A stretch of 64,000 nt of DNA, taken from positions 4,988 to 68,987 of the forward strand of contig JASEGZ010000005.1 of NCBI GenBank assembly GCA_030018935.1. The letters are read 5' to 3'. The notes under the pieces are model-generated. The model made no database searches. It was not told the origin of the DNA and worked only from the letters and a program-made list of their open reading frames with translations. The first letter of the stretch is position 1, and every line of letters starts with the position of its first letter. The DNA is from Syntrophales bacterium. Lineage in GTDB: Bacteria > Desulfobacterota > Syntrophia > Syntrophales > CG2-30-49-12. A program made the translations under genes and the position numbers. This document shows positions 45,761-52,725 of the stretch, piece after piece.

Positions 45761-45974
45761 AGGTATGCTGGAGAAATTGGAGGAAATTGTCAGAAGGATG
45801 GAGACAGGGGAGATGACCCTCGAAGAATCCCTCAAGGCCTTTGAAGAGGGGATAAAACTCGCCCGGCTGTGTGCCGCCAAGCTTGATGAGGCACAGAGGC
45901 GGGTTGATATCCTCCTTAAACAGGGGGAAGAACCGGTCATTAAGCCATTTCAAGAAGGGGAAGAGGAACAGTGA
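45741..45974 (+). CDS. xseB: exodeoxyribonuclease VII small subunit
   Basis: FEGMLEKLEEIVRRMETGEMTLEESLKAFEEGIKL is typical of XseB. Confidence 0.9.
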   Translation: MAKEKFEGMLEKLEEIVRRMETGEMTLEESLKAFEEGIKLARLCAAKLDEAQRRVDILLKQGEEPVIKPFQEGEEEQ

Positions 45975-46894
45975 GTGTAGAACATGACCATAATTTCCTG
46001 ATGGCGTATCTTAAGGAAAAAAAGGGGATCATTGATGAGGCCCTTGACCGTTACCTCCCCGAAGAGGAAAACTACCCGCCGGTGATCTTTAAAGCTGTCC
46101 GGTACAGCCTTTTTGCAGGAGGGAAGAGGATCAGGCCGATCTTATGTCTGGCCTCGGCAGAGGCAGTCGGAGGGGGAAGCGGGGAGAGCCTGCATTCAAT
46201 CCTGCCGGTGGCCTGCGCCTTGGAGCTTATCCATACCTACTCCCTGATTCATGATGACCTTCCCGCCATGGATAACGACGATTACAGGAGAGGGAAACCG
46301 ACAAATCATAAGGTGTTTGGTGAAGGCATTGCCATTCTGGCCGGTGATGCCCTCCTGACGGAAGCCTTCCACCTGATGTCAAGGCGGGACGTTATGGGAG
46401 ATGTCCCGCCGGAATTGCTTCTCACCGTAATTCATGATATTGCAGAGGCAGCGGGATACTTCGGAATGGTTGGGGGGCAGGTGGTTGATCTCCAATCGGA
46501 GGGGAAGGATGCCGATAACGAAACGCTTCATTACATCCACTCCCATAAGACGGGGGCGATGATCTCTGCTTCTGTCAGGGCGGGTGCATTATTGGCCGGC
46601 GCCGGAAAAAACGATCTCCATGCCCTCTCCGCATACGGCAGGCATGTGGGCCTCGTCTTCCAGATAGCAGACGATATCCTCAATATTGAAGGGGACAGGA
46701 AGTTGCTGGGAAAGAACACGGGGAGCGATGCCTCGCGTGGTAAGATCACCTTTCCTGCCCTGATGGGCGTGGAAACGTCCCGCAGGAAGGCCCGGGAGCT
46801 TGTGGAACAGGCCCTGACCGATATTGCAGACTTTGATCACAGGGCTCGTCCTTTGCGGGAGATAGCAAGGTATGTCATAAGTCGTAAGTCATAA
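45971..46894 (+). CDS. ispA: polyprenyl (farnesyl/geranylgeranyl) diphosphate synthase
   Basis: Aspartate-rich motifs IHDDLPAMDNDD and ADDILN. GTG start overlaps the xseB stop. The last codons and the stop lie inside the repeat A3 left arm. Confidence 0.92.
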   Translation: MSVEHDHNFLMAYLKEKKGIIDEALDRYLPEEENYPPVIFKAVRYSLFAGGKRIRPILCLASAEAVGGGSGESLHSILPVACALELIHTYSLIHDDLPAMDNDDYRRGKPTNHKVFGEGIAILAGDALLTEAFHLMSRRDVMGDVPPELLLTVIHDIAEAAGYFGMVGGQVVDLQSEGKDADNETLHYIHSHKTGAMISASVRAGALLAGAGKNDLHALSAYGRHVGLVFQIADDILNIEGDRKLLGKNTGSDASRGKITFPALMGVETSRRKARELVEQALTDIADFDHRARPLREIARYVISRKS

Positions 46895-47106
46895 GTCGTA
46901 AGTCAAACATAGATGAAAATTGGGAAATCCAAGGATATTAAAAGGATATTAAGGTGTGGCAGATGGCAGGGAAACCGGCAAGAGAGAGTTTAAAGGATAA
47001 ATTTGCCAAAGATTTGGGCTTGAAGGATCAAATTCGCAGGGCGGCTGTGTTCAATATTTCGGGGGGTTTTGTATGACATATGACATACGACATACGACAT
47101 ACGACA
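46873..47106. repeat. family A element with a unique core of about 165 bp (left arm 46873-46905, right arm 47071-47106)
   Basis: The left arm tgtcataagtcgtaagtcataagtcgtaagtc and right arm gtatgacatatgacatacgacatacgacatacgacat are about 7/8 complementary per unit by hand pairing. Confidence 0.85.
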
Positions 47107-49025
47107 TTTTAGAAAGGGTCAATTTCCCCGATAATATCAGGGGACTCGATATTGTGGCATTAAATGCGCTGGCCCAGGAGATAAGAGATAAGATTATTGA
47201 GACCACATCCAGACGTGGCGGTCATCTCGCCTCATCTCTGGGTAGCGTGGAATTGACCCTTGCGCTCCACTATGTCTTTGATACTCCAAAAGACAAGCTC
47301 ATCTGGGACGTGGGGCACCAGGCCTATGCCCACAAGATCATTACCGGACGAAAAGACCTGTTTGATACCCTTCGCCAGAGGGGGGGAATCAGTGGTTTCC
47401 CCCGGAGAGAGGAGAGTTCTTATGATGTTTTCAATACGGGGCATAGTGGCACATCCATCTCGGCTGCGTCTGGCATTGCGGAAGCGAGATGTCTGAGAGG
47501 TGGAGACTTTAAGGTAGTTGCCGTCATTGGTGACGGCTCCATGGCGGCCGGCATGGCGTTTGAGGCTCTCAACTGGGCGGGAGACCGCAACAAGGACCTG
47601 ATCATCATCCTGAATGACAATGAGATGAGCATCTCACCCAATGTCGGCGCCATGTCCTCTTATCTGAACCGCATTATGACCGGTCAGAGGGTTACCAAAT
47701 TAAAGATGGAGATCAAGAACTTCATGAAATCCATCCCCCAGATTGGTGAACAGATGTTGAAATTCACGAAAAAGATAGAAGAATCACTGAAGACCTTCGT
47801 TGTGCCGGGTGCCCTGTTTGAAGAATTAGGATTTACCTATGTAGGCCCCCTTCAGGGACACCGCCTGGATCATCTCATTAAAAACCTGGAAAACGTGAGG
47901 AAACTTCAAGGGCCGGTTCTTGTCCATGTGATCACCAGGAAGGGAAAGGGTTACAGGTTTGCCGAAGAGGATCCTTTACGGTTTCACGGGATAGGTCCTT
48001 TCCGGATTGATACGGGTGAAACTGTTACCAGAGACGCCGCTCCCCCGTCTTATACGAAAATATTCGGCAGGACGGTGGTAAAGCTGGCGCATGACAATCC
48101 CCGCATTGTGGCGATAACGGCTGCCATGTGTGGGGGGACGGGACTCGATCAGTTTGTTAGCGAGTTCCCGGAGCGGTTTTATGATGTGGGTATCGCCGAA
48201 CAGCATGGCGTGACCTTTGCTGCCGGTCTGGCCACGGAAGGGCTGATCCCGGTGGTAGCCATCTATTCGACCTTTATGCAGAGGGCTTACGATCAAATTC
48301 TCCACGATGTCTGTCTTCAAAAACTGCCGGTTGTCCTTGCCCTCGATCGCGGAGGGCTTGTGGGGGAAGACGGTCCCAGCCATCATGGACTATTTGACTT
48401 TGCCTATCTACGCTCTATTCCGAATATCATTGTGATGGCCCCGAAGGATGAAAACGAACTCCAGCATATGCTAAAAACAGCGGTGGAGTGTGGATGTCCC
48501 GTTTCCGTGAGATACCCGAGAGGGAAAGGAGTGGGTGTACCCCTCGATGACATACCGGTTTCTCTTGAAATCGGGAAAGGTGAGGTTGTGTTAGGGGAGA
48601 GGGGGGCTGATCTGGCCATATTTGCCATCGGGTCTACCGTTCATCCTGCGATGGCGGCTGCCGGAAAACTCCGCCAGGAAGGTATCAGCGCCATGGTCAT
48701 CAACGCCCGCTTTGTAAAGCCCATTGATGGCGCTCTCCTCTGTGAGGTGGCGGCATCCCTGAAGAAAATCATTACCGTGGAAGAAAATGTCCTCATGGGG
48801 GGGTTCGGGAGCGCCGTCCTCGAATTGTTTGAGGAAAAAGGAGTTCACGGAATCACGGTAAAAAGGCTTGGTATCCGGGACGAATTTGTGGAACATGCTC
48901 AGCAGGCAGAGTTGAGAAGGATGTACGGTATTGATGAAGATGGTATCATCGCGGCTGCACGAAGTATGATTGCTGAATATGGATGTAAAAAACACCAGAG
49001 AAAGATTAGACAAGTTGCTGGTTGA
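47073..49025 (+). CDS. dxs: 1-deoxy-D-xylulose-5-phosphate synthase
   Basis: GGHLASSLG, GHQAYAHKIITGR and GDGSMAAGMAFEALN. The only in-frame start upstream of the conserved N-terminus is the ATG inside the repeat (MTYDIRHTTYDILE...). Confidence 0.93.
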   Translation: MTYDIRHTTYDILERVNFPDNIRGLDIVALNALAQEIRDKIIETTSRRGGHLASSLGSVELTLALHYVFDTPKDKLIWDVGHQAYAHKIITGRKDLFDTLRQRGGISGFPRREESSYDVFNTGHSGTSISAASGIAEARCLRGGDFKVVAVIGDGSMAAGMAFEALNWAGDRNKDLIIILNDNEMSISPNVGAMSSYLNRIMTGQRVTKLKMEIKNFMKSIPQIGEQMLKFTKKIEESLKTFVVPGALFEELGFTYVGPLQGHRLDHLIKNLENVRKLQGPVLVHVITRKGKGYRFAEEDPLRFHGIGPFRIDTGETVTRDAAPPSYTKIFGRTVVKLAHDNPRIVAITAAMCGGTGLDQFVSEFPERFYDVGIAEQHGVTFAAGLATEGLIPVVAIYSTFMQRAYDQILHDVCLQKLPVVLALDRGGLVGEDGPSHHGLFDFAYLRSIPNIIVMAPKDENELQHMLKTAVECGCPVSVRYPRGKGVGVPLDDIPVSLEIGKGEVVLGERGADLAIFAIGSTVHPAMAAAGKLRQEGISAMVINARFVKPIDGALLCEVAASLKKIITVEENVLMGGFGSAVLELFEEKGVHGITVKRLGIRDEFVEHAQQAELRRMYGIDEDGIIAAARSMIAEYGCKKHQRKIRQVAG

Positions 49026-49722
49026 CAGGGGTCTCTCCATGACACGGGAGCGGGCAAGAGCGCTCATCATGTCCGGGGCTGTGATCGTTGGGGATTGCCT
49101 GGTGGATAAGCCGGGCGTACTTGTGCCCCGGGATGGAGAAGTCAGGATCAGGGGCGACGATAACCCCTACGTGAGCAGGGGAGGGTTGAAACTTAAAGGA
49201 GCCCTCCTGACATTCGGCATCTGTGTAAAAGGTCTCGTTGTCCTCGATGTGGGCGCCTCCACGGGCGGTTTTACCGACTGCCTCCTCCAGGAAGGGGCAG
49301 GAAAGGTCTATGCCCTTGATTGCGGTTACGGTCAACTGGCGTGGAAACTGAGGAAAGACAGAAGGGTGACCGTTATAGAACGGACAAACATCCGCTACTT
49401 CGAGGGCGCCGGCATTCATGATGAGGTAGATATGGCCGTGATAGATACCTCTTTTATTTCCCTCAAACTGGTCATTTCCCCTGTCCTTAAGTTCATAAAA
49501 GATGGCGCTATGATCATTGCCCTCATTAAACCGCAGTTTGAGGTGGGGCAAAAAGATGTGGGAAAACAAGGGGTGGTCAGGGATCCTGAGCTACAGAGGA
49601 AGGTGGTTGAGGAGATGACGGCATTCTGCGAGGGATTAAACCTTGAGGTTGTGGGAACATGCGAGTCCCCCTTGTTGGGGCCCGCCGGCAACAGAGAATT
49701 CTTTATCTATGCAAAAAAATAA
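48979..49722 (+). CDS. tlyA: TlyA family rRNA (cytidine-2'-O)-methyltransferase
   Basis: S4-like N-terminus RLDKLLVDRGL and the SAM motif VLDVGASTGGFTD. ATG 48979 (ORF track TTG 48970) overlaps the dxs 3' end. Confidence 0.88.
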   Translation: MDVKNTRERLDKLLVDRGLSMTRERARALIMSGAVIVGDCLVDKPGVLVPRDGEVRIRGDDNPYVSRGGLKLKGALLTFGICVKGLVVLDVGASTGGFTDCLLQEGAGKVYALDCGYGQLAWKLRKDRRVTVIERTNIRYFEGAGIHDEVDMAVIDTSFISLKLVISPVLKFIKDGAMIIALIKPQFEVGQKDVGKQGVVRDPELQRKVVEEMTAFCEGLNLEVVGTCESPLLGPAGNREFFIYAKK

Positions 49723-49811
49723 GGCTTGAGAGGCACAAAGAAAAAAGGATGAAGTCTCCGGATTAACTTTGTGCCTTTGCCCCTCTGTGCCTCTCAAGCC
49801 TGAGTAGTTAC
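49722..49811. repeat. family C hairpin (GGCACAAAG / CTTTGTGCC arms)
   Basis: aggcttgagaggcacaaag ... ctttgtgcctttgcccctctgtgcctctcaagcctgagtagttac. It fills the tlyA-ispH spacer and ends 1 nt before the ispH ATG. Confidence 0.85.
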
Positions 49812-49812
49812 G

Positions 49813-51555
49813 ATGGTTGTTAAACTGGCGAGGGCGGCAGGATTCTGCATGGGTGTCAAGAGGGCTGTTGACATGGTCCTCGATATTGCCCGGCGCAAGG
49901 GTAAAGAGAATATCTACACGTACGGGCCACTGATCCATAATCCCCAGACGATAGAACTTCTCAGGATGCGGGGGATCATTCCTGTCTCTCACCTGGATGA
50001 AATCCGTGAGGGAGGGGCGACTATTATCATCAGGGCGCACGGTATATCGCCCCAGGAGAGAGAGAGGATCAGGGAAAGAGGGATCAGGATCATTGACGCT
50101 ACCTGTCCTAAGGTTGCACATGTCCAGGCTATTATTAAAAAACATGCCCTTCTCAATTATACCGTCCTGATCGTTGGTGATGGTGAGCACCCGGAGGTGA
50201 ATGGCCTCCTCGGATATACCTATGGTAAGGGCATTGTCATTGGCAGCAGGGATGAAGTGGATTGTCTTCCCGAGCTGGATAGGGTTTGCGTAGTTGCACA
50301 GACGACACAAAGTATCGTCGAATATAACGAAATCGTAAAGAGGATCAAGGAAAAATTCCCCGATAATGTCGTTTTTGATACCATCTGTAATTCTACGGAG
50401 CAGAGACAGTCCGAGGTTAAAGAACTGGCTGGACAGATGGATGCCATGGTTATCGTGGGAGGGAAGAACAGCGCAAACACGAAGCGATTGGCCAGGTTAT
50501 CTGAACTTACGGGAACGCCTACATTTCACATTGAAACTGTGGAAGAGCTTAAAAAAATGACAATGAACAGTTACGAAAGAATCGGTGTTTCTGCAGGGGC
50601 ATCGACACCCAACTGGATCATTGACCGGGTGGTGGATAGCATTACAAGCTATCAAGGCCAAAAGAGGAAAAAGATCGGGGGGCTTTTTAATCTCTGGGTA
50701 TTTACCATCAGGTGCGATATATATTCCGCCATCGGCGCCGGATGCCTGTCCTTTACAGGCATGCTTTTACAGAAGCTCAACGTTAGTATCTTGAATATCC
50801 TGACCACATCACTTTATGTTTACGCCATGCATACCCTTAATCGTTTCATCAACAGGAAAACCAGCAGCAGCATCATCGGCTCGTTCAGGGAAGAACTATA
50901 TCGGAAGCATGAAAAGCTCTATCTGTTCATGGCGTTGCTCGCCCTCTTCCTTGCCATGGTATCTTCCTTCTTCACAGGTCTGGCCCCTTTTTTTCTGCTT
51001 TTACTGATTTCTGTCCTGGGGGTACTCTACAATACCAGGTTGTTACCGGAGAACTGGCGTTTAAAAAGACTGAGAGACCTGCCGGGATCAAAAAATGTCT
51101 CCATGGCCATGGCCTGGGGTACTGTGGCAGCGGTGCTACCACAGATGGAGATTGATCTGGCGATTACTCCCGGTATGACTGTAGCTTTTCTGTTTATCTT
51201 TTTCCTGGTTTTTATCCGCTCGGCAATGTCCGATACACTCGACATCCAGAGCGATCGTCTGATTGGCAGAGAAACGATCCCCGTCCTGATTGGAGAGGAA
51301 TATACCCGGATTCTTCTGCAGGGGATACTGGTTTTCCTGGTCATTTTACTCGTTATCGCCTATCCCGCGGGGTGGGCTCCCTCGTTGAGTCTTGCCCTTT
51401 TATCCTGCCCATTTTATGTATGGATTTGTTTTAAGCTCTGTGATAGAAGGTCGCAACTGTCCGGTGTAGTTCTGGAAGGTCTACTTGAGACCTGCTACAT
51501 CGTAGCCGGTATGAGTGCATTTTTGTGGTTCATTTTCACCAGGCATGTTCCGTAA
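49813..51555 (+). CDS. ispH: IspH (HMBPP reductase) fused to a C-terminal UbiA-like polytopic membrane domain
   Basis: aa 1-285 carry LARAAGFCMGVKRAV, ATCPKV, CNST and the VSAGASTPNW IspH motifs. aa about 290-580 are multi-TM with SDTLDIQSDRLIGRETIPVLIG, resembling the second Asp-rich UbiA motif. Confidence 0.85.
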   Translation: MVVKLARAAGFCMGVKRAVDMVLDIARRKGKENIYTYGPLIHNPQTIELLRMRGIIPVSHLDEIREGGATIIIRAHGISPQERERIRERGIRIIDATCPKVAHVQAIIKKHALLNYTVLIVGDGEHPEVNGLLGYTYGKGIVIGSRDEVDCLPELDRVCVVAQTTQSIVEYNEIVKRIKEKFPDNVVFDTICNSTEQRQSEVKELAGQMDAMVIVGGKNSANTKRLARLSELTGTPTFHIETVEELKKMTMNSYERIGVSAGASTPNWIIDRVVDSITSYQGQKRKKIGGLFNLWVFTIRCDIYSAIGAGCLSFTGMLLQKLNVSILNILTTSLYVYAMHTLNRFINRKTSSSIIGSFREELYRKHEKLYLFMALLALFLAMVSSFFTGLAPFFLLLLISVLGVLYNTRLLPENWRLKRLRDLPGSKNVSMAMAWGTVAAVLPQMEIDLAITPGMTVAFLFIFFLVFIRSAMSDTLDIQSDRLIGRETIPVLIGEEYTRILLQGILVFLVILLVIAYPAGWAPSLSLALLSCPFYVWICFKLCDRRSQLSGVVLEGLLETCYIVAGMSAFLWFIFTRHVP

Positions 51556-51585: not shown

Positions 51586-52167
51586 ATGAAAAAAAAGTGT
51601 TTTGTAGTAATCCTTCTGGTGTTGATGCTCTCCGGTTGTGGCGGACTCCGTTATTCCCAGGTTGCCCCGGAGGCAAAGGATTTTCATCCCCGGAGGATAG
51701 GTGTGCTTCCCGTTGATGTGGGAACCTACGAAGAGGCGAGGGGTGTTATTGACCAGGTTATTGCCGGTGTCCTTGTTGATAAAAAATGGTTTGCCGATGT
51801 GGTTGCTGCCGACACGATCAATAACCAGTTACAGTCCAATGAGGAACTGAGAAAGGTCGTAATGGATTATCTCGCCAAACTCAAAACCGTCAACTTTTCC
51901 GACCCTGAACTGAGTAAAAAGATTGGCGAACTTTCGCAGATTGATGCCTTTCTTGTGGTGAATGTGGACTACTGGAATTACACGGTGGAAAATGAAAAAA
52001 AGCTGGCCAAGGTCGGCATAGGGATTAAGATGGTGGAGGCCGGCACCGGGAAGATCATCTGGAAGGCAGGCCATCATCTATCAGAAGATTATCTGCTCTT
52101 CAAACCAGCCCTTCCTGACGTGGCCAGGGACCTTTGCAAGAAAATGATAGGCTACATGCCGCATTGA
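51586..52167 (+). CDS. lipoprotein of unknown function
   Basis: Signal peptide with lipobox LMLSGC; 193 aa. Confidence 0.7.
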   Translation: MKKKCFVVILLVLMLSGCGGLRYSQVAPEAKDFHPRRIGVLPVDVGTYEEARGVIDQVIAGVLVDKKWFADVVAADTINNQLQSNEELRKVVMDYLAKLKTVNFSDPELSKKIGELSQIDAFLVVNVDYWNYTVENEKKLAKVGIGIKMVEAGTGKIIWKAGHHLSEDYLLFKPALPDVARDLCKKMIGYMPH

Positions 52168-52289: not shown

Positions 52290-52514
52290 ATGAAGGAAAA
52301 GGTACAAAAAGCGATAGAGCGTATAAGGCCATCTCTTCAGGCTGACGGGGGAGATGTTGAGCTGGTTGATGTGAGCGATGACGGCATCGTGAAGGTTAGA
52401 TTAGTAGGTGCCTGTTGTGGCTGTCCCATGTCACAGATGACATTAAAGATGGGAATTCAGAAACATCTGCAGAAGGAAATTCCTGAAATTAAAGAAGTTG
52501 TTTCTGTATCGTAG
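52290..52514 (+). CDS. NifU-like (Nfu C-terminal domain) Fe-S assembly protein
   Basis: IRPSLQADGGDVELVDV...VRLVGACCGCPMSQMTLK is the NifU C-terminal domain signature. Confidence 0.85.
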   Translation: MKEKVQKAIERIRPSLQADGGDVELVDVSDDGIVKVRLVGACCGCPMSQMTLKMGIQKHLQKEIPEIKEVVSVS

Positions 52515-52545
52515 GTTTACCAGTCTCATGCAAGGAGAAGAAAGT

Positions 52546-52725
52546 ATGGCGTACGTAATTACGGATGAGTGCATTTGCTGTGGTTCCTGTCAGGAGGAAT
52601 GTCCTGAAGAGGCGATCAGTGAGGGAGAGGACAAATACGTTATTAATCCCAATCTTTGTATAGATTGCGGGACCTGTGCCGATCAATGCCCGGTTGAGGC
52701 AATCATACCGGCAGATGAAAGATAG
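52546..52725 (+). CDS. 2x[4Fe-4S] ferredoxin
   Basis: CICCGSCQEECP and CIDCGTCADQCP. ATG 52546 follows aaggagaag (ORF track starts at 52498). Confidence 0.9.
   Translation: MAYVITDECICCGSCQEECPEEAISEGEDKYVINPNLCIDCGTCADQCPVEAIIPADER

Follow-up and report, generated by a model that had tools for sequence, protein, structure and literature searches.

The DNA analysed here (the window) is a 64,000-nucleotide stretch of a Syntrophales bacterium contig (JASEGZ010000005.1, positions 4,988 to 68,987 of the forward strand), and one open reading frame (ORF) within it encodes the enzyme IspH joined to a UbiA-like membrane protein. IspH catalyses the final step of the bacterial pathway to isoprenoid precursors; it is essential and serves as a drug target. 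An initial annotation of this gene described a complete IspH (amino acids (aa) 1-285) that continues in frame into a UbiA-superfamily membrane half with an intact second Asp-rich motif and a "degenerate" first motif without Asp. It proposed that the junction be checked for a stop or frameshift in the reads at about 50650-50700, that aa 290-580 be examined with profile models and topology prediction, and that the architecture, which it did not recall as characterised, be surveyed across genomes. In following this up, we found that the fusion recurs across assemblies, that the window protein belongs to a monophyletic clade in which the first motif is replaced by a conserved Asp-free sequence, and that the membrane half is under purifying selection. 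The features are collected in Table 1.

Table 1. Features of the fusion gene and its upstream neighbours, numbered from the first nucleotide of the window (L numbers are our labels for related loci)
Feature	Position	Strand	Basis
ispH-ubiA fusion gene	49813..51555	+	One ORF, 580 aa plus stop, ATG start; both Pfam domains share the frame
IspH (LytB) domain, aa 1-285	49813..50667	+	LYTB, TIGR00216, alignment to 3DNF, Foldseek
Cys12, first [4Fe-4S] ligand (AGFCMGV)	49846..49848	+	Sequence reading; pairs with first cluster cysteine of solved IspH structures
Cys98, second [4Fe-4S] ligand (DATCPKV)	50104..50106	+	Invariant column; alignment to 3DNF
Cys192, third [4Fe-4S] ligand (DTICNST)	50386..50388	+	Invariant column; alignment to 3DNF
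Junction, aa 286-302	50668..50718	+	Short basic linker and pre-membrane helix aa 287-300; AlphaFold2 model
UbiA-fold membrane domain, aa 303-577, nine helices, N-terminus inside	50719..51543	+	PF01040, AlphaFold2, Foldseek, Lys+Arg count
First Asp-rich motif position, aa 342-352, LNRFINRKTSS	50836..50868	+	Family columns, hhalign to CyoE, Pfam coverage
Cytoplasmic loop 4-5 motif LRDLPGSKN, aa 420-428, family signature	51070..51096	+	83 representatives
Second Asp-rich motif and loop 6-7, aa 473-494, SDTLDIQSDRLIGRETIPVLIG	51229..51294	+	Family columns; alignment to E. coli UbiA
ispA-like polyprenyl synthetase	45971..46894	+	PF00348, 3.9e-61; syntenic in L002, L004, L006, L011 and L003 (shorter match)
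dxs, 1-deoxy-D-xylulose 5-phosphate (DXP) synthase, first enzyme of the methylerythritol phosphate (MEP) pathway	47073..49025	+	Translation; syntenic upstream in L002, L004, L006, L007, L008
TlyA-like S4/FtsJ methyltransferase gene, directly upstream of the fusion	48970..49722	+	PF01728, PF01479; syntenic in L002, L004, L006, L007, L008

The fusion gene and its two halves

The translated ORF runs through the junction, where a KRKK sequence occupies aa 284-287, without a stop or frameshift. When we scanned genomes for relatives, taking one genome per species, we obtained eight loci (L001-L008), and the in-frame fusion is kept in all eight of these species-level genomes, which are metagenome-assembled genomes (MAGs) labelled Syntrophaceae, Syntrophales, Syntrophus or "delta proteobacterium" and carry relatives that are 55-90% identical to the window protein. 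Syntrophales are syntrophs rather than classical sulfate reducers. The complete copies are 577-583 aa long with a conserved junction, and the copy in L005 is interrupted by the end of its contig. We also used the C-terminal half alone as the query in a HMMER search against 1.84 billion cluster representatives (50%-identity clusters) and found 1150 matches, 421 of them at E < 1e-10. Of the 150 top-ranked representatives, 84 reach 540 aa or more, with the membrane-half match at about residues 290-578, and the shorter entries are mostly contig-end fragments, several of which begin inside IspH. The 75 full-length family members that we compared share 34-64% identity with the window protein. Named members of the fusion family come from MAGs of Thermodesulfobacteriota, Desulfovibrionales, "Deltaproteobacteria" and Nitrospinota, where the NCBI annotation is simply IspH.

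The chance that assembly or sequencing has artificially joined two neighbouring genes is, in our judgement, close to nil: some database entries are indeed split or truncated, but the same fusion with its conserved junction is present in the independent assemblies of eight species and in at least 84 full-length entries among the best 150 representatives, and a published IspH-UbiA family counts 47 members (PMC4746011). We therefore rejected this reading, the truncated entries being contig-end fragments or frameshifted calls, and judge from these comparisons, rather than from reads, that the junction is not an artefact and that the fusion in the window is real.

The clearest example of a split entry is P0047, where a frameshift divides the fusion gene on contig L011 (7591-9341) into fragments of 96 aa (LYTB) and 446 aa (LYTB+UbiA); the dxs of this contig is broken as well and shortened to 384 aa. 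The split looks like the result of assembly frameshift errors rather than a natural division, and errors of this type explain many "short" database entries of the IspH-UbiA family. Within the best 150 representatives, this UbiA subgroup seems to occur only rarely without IspH. One membrane-domain homologue, P0181 (L017 301-1224, 307 aa), has no ispH coding sequence in the 300 bp upstream, which contain stops in every frame, so at least one true stand-alone homologue exists.

In the IspH half, Pfam LYTB (PF02401) matches aa 3-277 (E 9e-92, 307.6 bits against a cut-off of 24.5), and the NCBIfam IspH equivalog model TIGR00216 scores 293.3 bits, over its cut-off of 187.85. This half aligns end to end with Aquifex aeolicus IspH (3DNF; 3e-69, 41-42% identity) and with E. 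coli IspH. The trefoil three-domain IspH fold is present when we compare the half with solved structures by Foldseek, with a template modelling (TM) score of 0.73-0.81 against 3DNF and 0.82-0.85 (root-mean-square deviation 1.6-1.9 Å) against E. coli and Plasmodium IspH (3KE8, 3SZU, 4N7B), the score for 3KE8 and 3SZU being about 0.84. In a 76-sequence family alignment, H42, H76, C98, H126, E128, T165, C192, S220, N222 and S264 are invariant. These columns correspond, in the same order, to H41, H74, C96, H124, E126, T167, C197, S225, N227 and S269 of E. coli IspH, which together with C12 are its known cluster and substrate residues. The IspH half is thus a fully equipped predicted [4Fe-4S] reductase of (E)-4-hydroxy-3-methylbut-2-enyl diphosphate (HMBPP), and nothing points to impairment.

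In the membrane half, Pfam UbiA (PF01040) matches aa 369-546 with 51.1 bits in the whole protein and 55 bits in the C-terminal half alone, over the gathering score of 34.2; the best NCBIfam match of this half is a generic "prenyltransferase" model, far under its cut-off. When we searched the membrane half against the Protein Data Bank by sequence, with the single sequence and with a 33-sequence profile, no UbiA protein came up and the matches were at noise level (E about 1), and the link to solved structures therefore rests on the fold search and on Pfam. An AlphaFold2 model of the full-length protein, built with the family alignment, has a mean predicted local distance difference test (pLDDT) score of 94.2 and a predicted TM score (pTM) of 0.91. 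In this model, the last IspH helix (267-284) is followed by a two-residue break, a helix at 287-300 and then nine membrane helices, and the pLDDT dips to about 79 at the junction. Across about 290 columns, at 13-16% identity and with E 2e-5 to 5e-3, Foldseek matched the membrane half to ApUbiA (4OD4, E 2e-5), digeranylgeranylglyceryl phosphate (DGGGP) synthase (7BPU, 6M31), AfUbiA (4TQ3-4TQ6) and UBIAD1 (8DJK). At least 15 Lys and Arg residues lie on the loops on the IspH side of the membrane domain and one lies on the loops of the opposite side, and by the positive-inside rule the N-terminus is therefore inside. It follows that loops 2-3 (first motif), 4-5 (LRDLPGSK) and 6-7 (second motif) face the cytoplasm, as the active-site loops do in solved UbiA proteins (PMC4106721). 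Taken together, the protein belongs to the IspH family and has the UbiA superfamily fold, and its membrane half is a deeply diverged UbiA subgroup. What the initial annotation said of a complete IspH running in frame into a UbiA-superfamily membrane domain therefore stands, as does its junction.

The first Asp-rich motif and the rest of the pocket

We placed the first Asp-rich motif at LNRFINRK because four lines of evidence support this position: the family-wide anchor MHxLN, which sits at the cytoplasmic end of helix 2, the AlphaFold2 helix boundaries, an alignment to CyoE and the coverage of the Pfam model. When the family profile is aligned by hhalign to E. coli CyoE, N343, N347 and S351 pair with the N, D and D of fNnyiDrdiD, a weak match (E 0.0028), and alignments to the single E. 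coli UbiA and CyoE sequences reach a probability of only 1-11%, so that we use them as support and not as proof. Pfam UbiA aligns over its profile positions 5-239 in relatives with NxxxD (40-66 bits) and over positions 70-238 in the window protein and in the divergent relative P0229. At this site the window protein reads N343-R-F-I-N347-R-K-T-S351: N343 is kept, N347 replaces the Mg2+-ligand Asp and S351 replaces the second Asp, and there is no Asp or Glu within aa 344-358. The canonical first motif, NDxxDxxxD (N68, D72 and D76 in AfUbiA), is missing. Because this defining feature was examined and is absent, we do not file the window protein as a canonical Mg2+-dependent UbiA prenyltransferase.

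In AfUbiA, the Mg2+ bridging the diphosphate is held by N68 and D72, and N68A and D72A abolish binding of geranyl diphosphate (GPP), with loss of function for the equivalents in MenA; D198A and D202A in the second motif weaken GPP binding only 45-fold and 21-fold (PMC4106721). In the IspH-UbiA family we found that the pattern of conservation is reversed with respect to such canonical enzymes, the second motif being invariant and the first dispensable. Among 83 representatives outside the close clade of the window protein, position 343 is Asn in 87%, position 347 is Asp in 53%, Glu in 18% and another residue in 29%, and position 351 is Asp in only 16%. By a rough estimate on a neighbour-joining tree, the acid at 347 has undergone at least 17 state changes. 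Most family sequences without an acid at 347 carry one to four acidic residues nearby. In the same 83 representatives, D481 of the second motif is conserved in 99%, G485 in 98%, D474 in 78% and D477 in 73%; in loop 6-7, G494 is conserved in 95%, T488 in 90%, E487 in 89% and P490 in 88%; and in the loop 4-5 signature LRDLPGSKN, S426 is conserved in 92%, P424 in 89%, K427 in 86% and D422 in 80%. Other near-invariant positions are Y406 (99%), G403 (96%), W435 (95%), R469 (94%) and P443 (94%). The DxxxD of the second motif (D198 and D202 in AfUbiA) is present as D477-I-Q-S-D481, and the motif pairs with mvDrdDDvkIGiksTailfG of E. coli UbiA in an hhalign alignment of low probability, so the intact second motif of the initial annotation is borne out. 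Y406, at the end of helix 4, and K427, in loop 4-5, are conserved at the places expected of AfUbiA Y139 and K146, a correspondence of sequence positions and not of superposed structures. Since the first motif is dispensable across the family, any function that its members share cannot depend on the canonical first Mg2+ site.

The window clade, together with the divergent members P0123, P0229 and P0207, forms one monophyletic group on the neighbour-joining tree. Its members have no acidic residue at 344-358, except L007 and P0207 with one acidic residue each, and at 355-357 the window clade has IGS where N-[DE]-P is common elsewhere. The sequence that takes the place of the first motif is itself conserved in the Syntrophales clade, as LNRF[IVM][NS]R[KRE]. 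The ratio of nonsynonymous to synonymous substitution rates (dN/dS) is 0.14-0.18 in the membrane half as compared to 0.09-0.23 in the IspH half, and the membrane half is under purifying selection. The first motif was thus correctly described as free of Asp; "degenerate", however, is less apt than remodelled and conserved. We also considered a dead-copy reading, in which loss of the acid at 347 would go with loss of other pocket residues, and rejected it because we saw no such correlation: in sequences without an acid at 347, D481 and Y406 are each kept in 32 of 33, and K427 and R469 each in 30 of 33. The conservation of the remodelled motif and the purifying selection argue against a decaying, purely inert anchor.

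Genes around the fusion

In the window, the gene order is xseA, xseB, ispA, dxs, the tlyA-like gene and ispH/ubiA, followed by a lipoprotein-like ORF, a NifU-like gene, a 2x[4Fe-4S] ferredoxin gene, tmk, holB, PSP1 and metG. This order is kept in the Syntrophales loci, in L011 and in the locus of P0229, and the Syntrophales lineage shares dxs, tlyA, the fusion, a 190-aa ORF, NifU, ferredoxin, tmk and holB. In L011 and L016, dxs is called as DXP_synthase. There is no second ispH or ubiA in the 64-kb window, and the linkage to ispA and dxs fits a housekeeping role in the MEP pathway.

When taken from its first possible start (TTG, 48970), the tlyA-like ORF overlaps the end of dxs by 56 nt, and its true start may be downstream. 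In the 90-nt spacer between the tlyA-like stop and the fusion start, we found a long, near-perfect hairpin at 49722-49801, with arms ggcttgagaggcaca and tgtgcctctcaagcc and an inner stem (minimum free energy -41.5 kcal/mol, z = -7.5 against shuffles) and no U-tract after it; a search against Rfam matched no family and gave sub-threshold noise only. In L001, the closest relative, the spacer differs in sequence and can likewise pair strongly with itself; other relatives have no such spacer, their genes overlapping instead.

Downstream, a 193-aa ORF with a lipoprotein signal (MKKKCFVVILLVLMLSGCGG) at 51586-52167 (+) begins 31 nt past the fusion gene. It has no Pfam or NCBIfam match over threshold, only a weak LpoB-like match at its N-terminus, and it occupies the same position in L001, L002, L003, L006 and L008, with an ORF of similar size and position in L011 and L016. 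Two to three genes downstream of the fusion, at 52290-52725 (+), lie the gene for the 74-aa NifU-like protein and, overlapping it, the gene for the 75-aa 2x[4Fe-4S] ferredoxin. The NifU-like gene is at the same position in L002, L004, L005, L006, L007, L011 and L016, and the ferredoxin gene was confirmed only in L011 and L016. As speculation, the two products would be plausible helpers of IspH, delivering Fe-S clusters and low-potential electrons.

Possible functions and comparison with known systems

The explanation that we prefer, and to which we give roughly an even chance, is that a housekeeping IspH is tethered to the membrane by a UbiA-fold domain whose pocket for a phosphate-bearing isoprenoid is remodelled yet functional. 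The IspH half would make isopentenyl diphosphate (IPP) and dimethylallyl diphosphate (DMAPP). Because the domain has nine helices and a cytoplasmic N-terminus, it would hold IspH at the cytoplasmic surface of the membrane, where the polar mouth of the UbiA cavity also lies. From the residues that are kept, we infer that the membrane half still has a working pocket without being a canonical two-Mg2+ prenyltransferase, and that this pocket probably still binds a phosphate-bearing isoprenoid ligand, because D477, D481, Tyr406, Lys427, Arg469 and the basic residues R344, R348, K349 and R359 are all retained. The Asn or Ser at 347 and these four basic residues may stand in for the Asp-Mg2+ pair. 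The membrane half would then most likely capture or hand on, at the membrane, a prenyl diphosphate made from the IspH products, either transferring the prenyl group with a remodelled metal site or binding it without turnover.

Several points weigh against this explanation. The AfUbiA equivalent of N347, D72, is essential for the Mg2+-dependent binding of GPP, and by analogy prenyl diphosphate binding may have been lost altogether in the clade. We found no operon partner across the family: in a Desulfovibrionales MAG, a Nitrospinota-type contig and another metagenome contig the neighbours are unrelated, and since conserved neighbours are confined to the Syntrophales lineage, the gene context offers no hint of an acceptor. 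Published attempts to express the fusions of D. autotrophicum, Desulfobacca acetoxidans and Thermodesulfatator yielded a truncated or insoluble product (PMC4746011).

A broader alternative, possible but held tentatively, is that the UbiA domain of the whole family is no prenyltransferase of a known type and has a role that does not depend on the first motif, for example as a receptor that reports the state of membrane prenyl phosphates or quinones to IspH as feedback on the last MEP step, or in new HMBPP or DMAPP chemistry in which basic residues take the place of the first Mg2+. It is suggested by the contrast between the first Mg2+ ligand, dispensable across the family and fully absent from this clade, and the near-invariance of Tyr406, Lys427, Arg469 and the second motif.

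Somewhat less probable is an inert anchor or scaffold, in which the domain of this clade has lost both catalysis and ligand binding and keeps IspH near an electron donor or near prenyl-consuming enzymes. The lack of acidic residues at aa 344-358 in the window protein and most clade members, the retreat of the Pfam UbiA alignment from the first-motif region, the loss of GPP binding in AfUbiA D72A and of function in the MenA equivalents (PMC4106721), and the localisation role also considered by Rao et al. (PMC4746011) are all consistent with it. However, an anchor needs no near-invariant polar residues in its cytoplasmic loops, and we found that D481, Y406, R469, K427, E487 and T488 are 86-99% conserved, equally so in sequences without an acid at 347, that by dN/dS the membrane half is as strongly constrained as the enzyme half, and that the replaced first motif is itself conserved. 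That the pocket as a whole is under selection argues against a mere hydrophobic anchor.

We think it unlikely that the domain is a ligand sensor, in which a membrane isoprenoid or prenyl (di)phosphate bound in the pocket would allosterically tune IspH as feedback on the last MEP step. A pocket conserved without its catalytic Asp suits such a role, the very short linker and high pTM suggest rigid coupling of the two domains, and a sensor was raised by Rao et al. (PMC4746011); we know, however, of no UbiA-fold sensor that could serve as a precedent.

Quite improbable for the window protein is the canonical bifunctional enzyme proposed in 2015, a Mg2+-dependent, two-motif prenyltransferase fed by prenyl diphosphates derived from IspH. 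Two DXXXD repeats were reported in Desulfobacterales members (PMC4746011), some relatives keep the first motif (P0122 reads NHFTDKEAD), and the UbiA fold and second motif are intact. In contrast, Asp is missing from the first motif throughout the window clade, the equivalent D72A abolishes binding in AfUbiA (PMC4106721), and the variable acid at 347 and scarce Asp at 351 indicate that a shared function cannot need this motif.

The IspH-UbiA architecture has been known since 2015, and the Asp-free clade is a modest, mechanistically relevant variant of one of only two abundant IspH fusions. New here are a larger and taxonomically broader family in which the first motif is weak throughout, and a monophyletic, Syntrophales-centred clade fully without that motif, in which the rest of the pocket and the domain are under purifying selection. 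The "two DXXXD repeats" were part of the published case for an active prenyltransferase, a simple reading that a dispensable first motif weakens. Proteins with N347 and with D347 are natural variants for probing the function of the membrane domain, and D481, Y406 and K427 are candidate sites for point mutants. Should the domain turn out to act as a sensor or a new kind of transferase, it would reveal that anaerobic Thermodesulfobacteriota control the final part of the MEP pathway at a point coupled to the membrane; an ordinary anchor would be of no more than local interest.

Among known systems, the window protein resembles stand-alone IspH (E. coli 3KE8, A. aeolicus 3DNF) in having all catalytic and cluster-binding residues, but those enzymes are soluble, about 280-316 aa long and without a membrane domain. 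It shares the IspH subtype of the fusions of IspH to ribosomal protein S1 (RPS1) in Firmicutes (NF000907), its IspH half scoring 321 bits on the first 281 positions of that model; there, in contrast, the partner consists of soluble, RNA-binding ribosomal protein S1 repeats, and the window protein is far under the 624-bit cut-off. With ApUbiA (4OD4/4OD5), AfUbiA (4TQ3-4TQ6) and DGGGP synthase (6M31, 7BPU) it shares the nine-helix fold (E 2e-5 to 5e-4, target-normalised TM 0.58-0.68), the second Asp-rich motif, the conserved Tyr, basic residues and cytoplasmic active-site loops. Unlike the archaeal UbiA homologues, to which it is 13-16% identical, it has Asn at the equivalent of AfUbiA D72 and an entire IspH at its N-terminus.

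The closest known system is the family described by Rao, O'Dowd, Li, Wang and Oldfield (2015; Chem Sci 6:6813, PMC4746011), who reported 47 IspH-UbiA "Rosetta stone" proteins, mainly from Desulfobacterales, alongside IspH-S1 fusions. They assigned the membrane half to the CDD subgroup PT_UbiA_5, described two DXXXD repeats in it, modelled it on ApUbiA with Phyre2, and proposed membrane localisation with a local supply of IPP and DMAPP, or a sensor, as its role (PMC4746011), ideas that the initial annotation also put forward. The statement in the initial annotation that this architecture has not been characterised therefore holds for its biochemistry, as none of the later papers within our search characterises an IspH-UbiA fusion, but not for its description, which was published in that work. 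Like the members of that family, the window protein has IspH at the N-terminus, a UbiA-like half with nine transmembrane helices at the C-terminus and a length of about 580 aa. The hosts in that study are anaerobic Deltaproteobacteria or Thermodesulfobacteriota, and the host of the window protein may be of a similar kind, since the genomes closest to the window, from Syntrophaceae, Syntrophales and Syntrophus MAGs, are broadly of the same phylum. The family found here is larger, with 421 representatives at E < 1e-10 as compared to 47 members, and reaches MAGs labelled Nitrospinota and Desulfovibrionales. In contrast to the published description, the window protein has only the second DXXXD, and its clade is centred on Syntrophales rather than Desulfobacterales.

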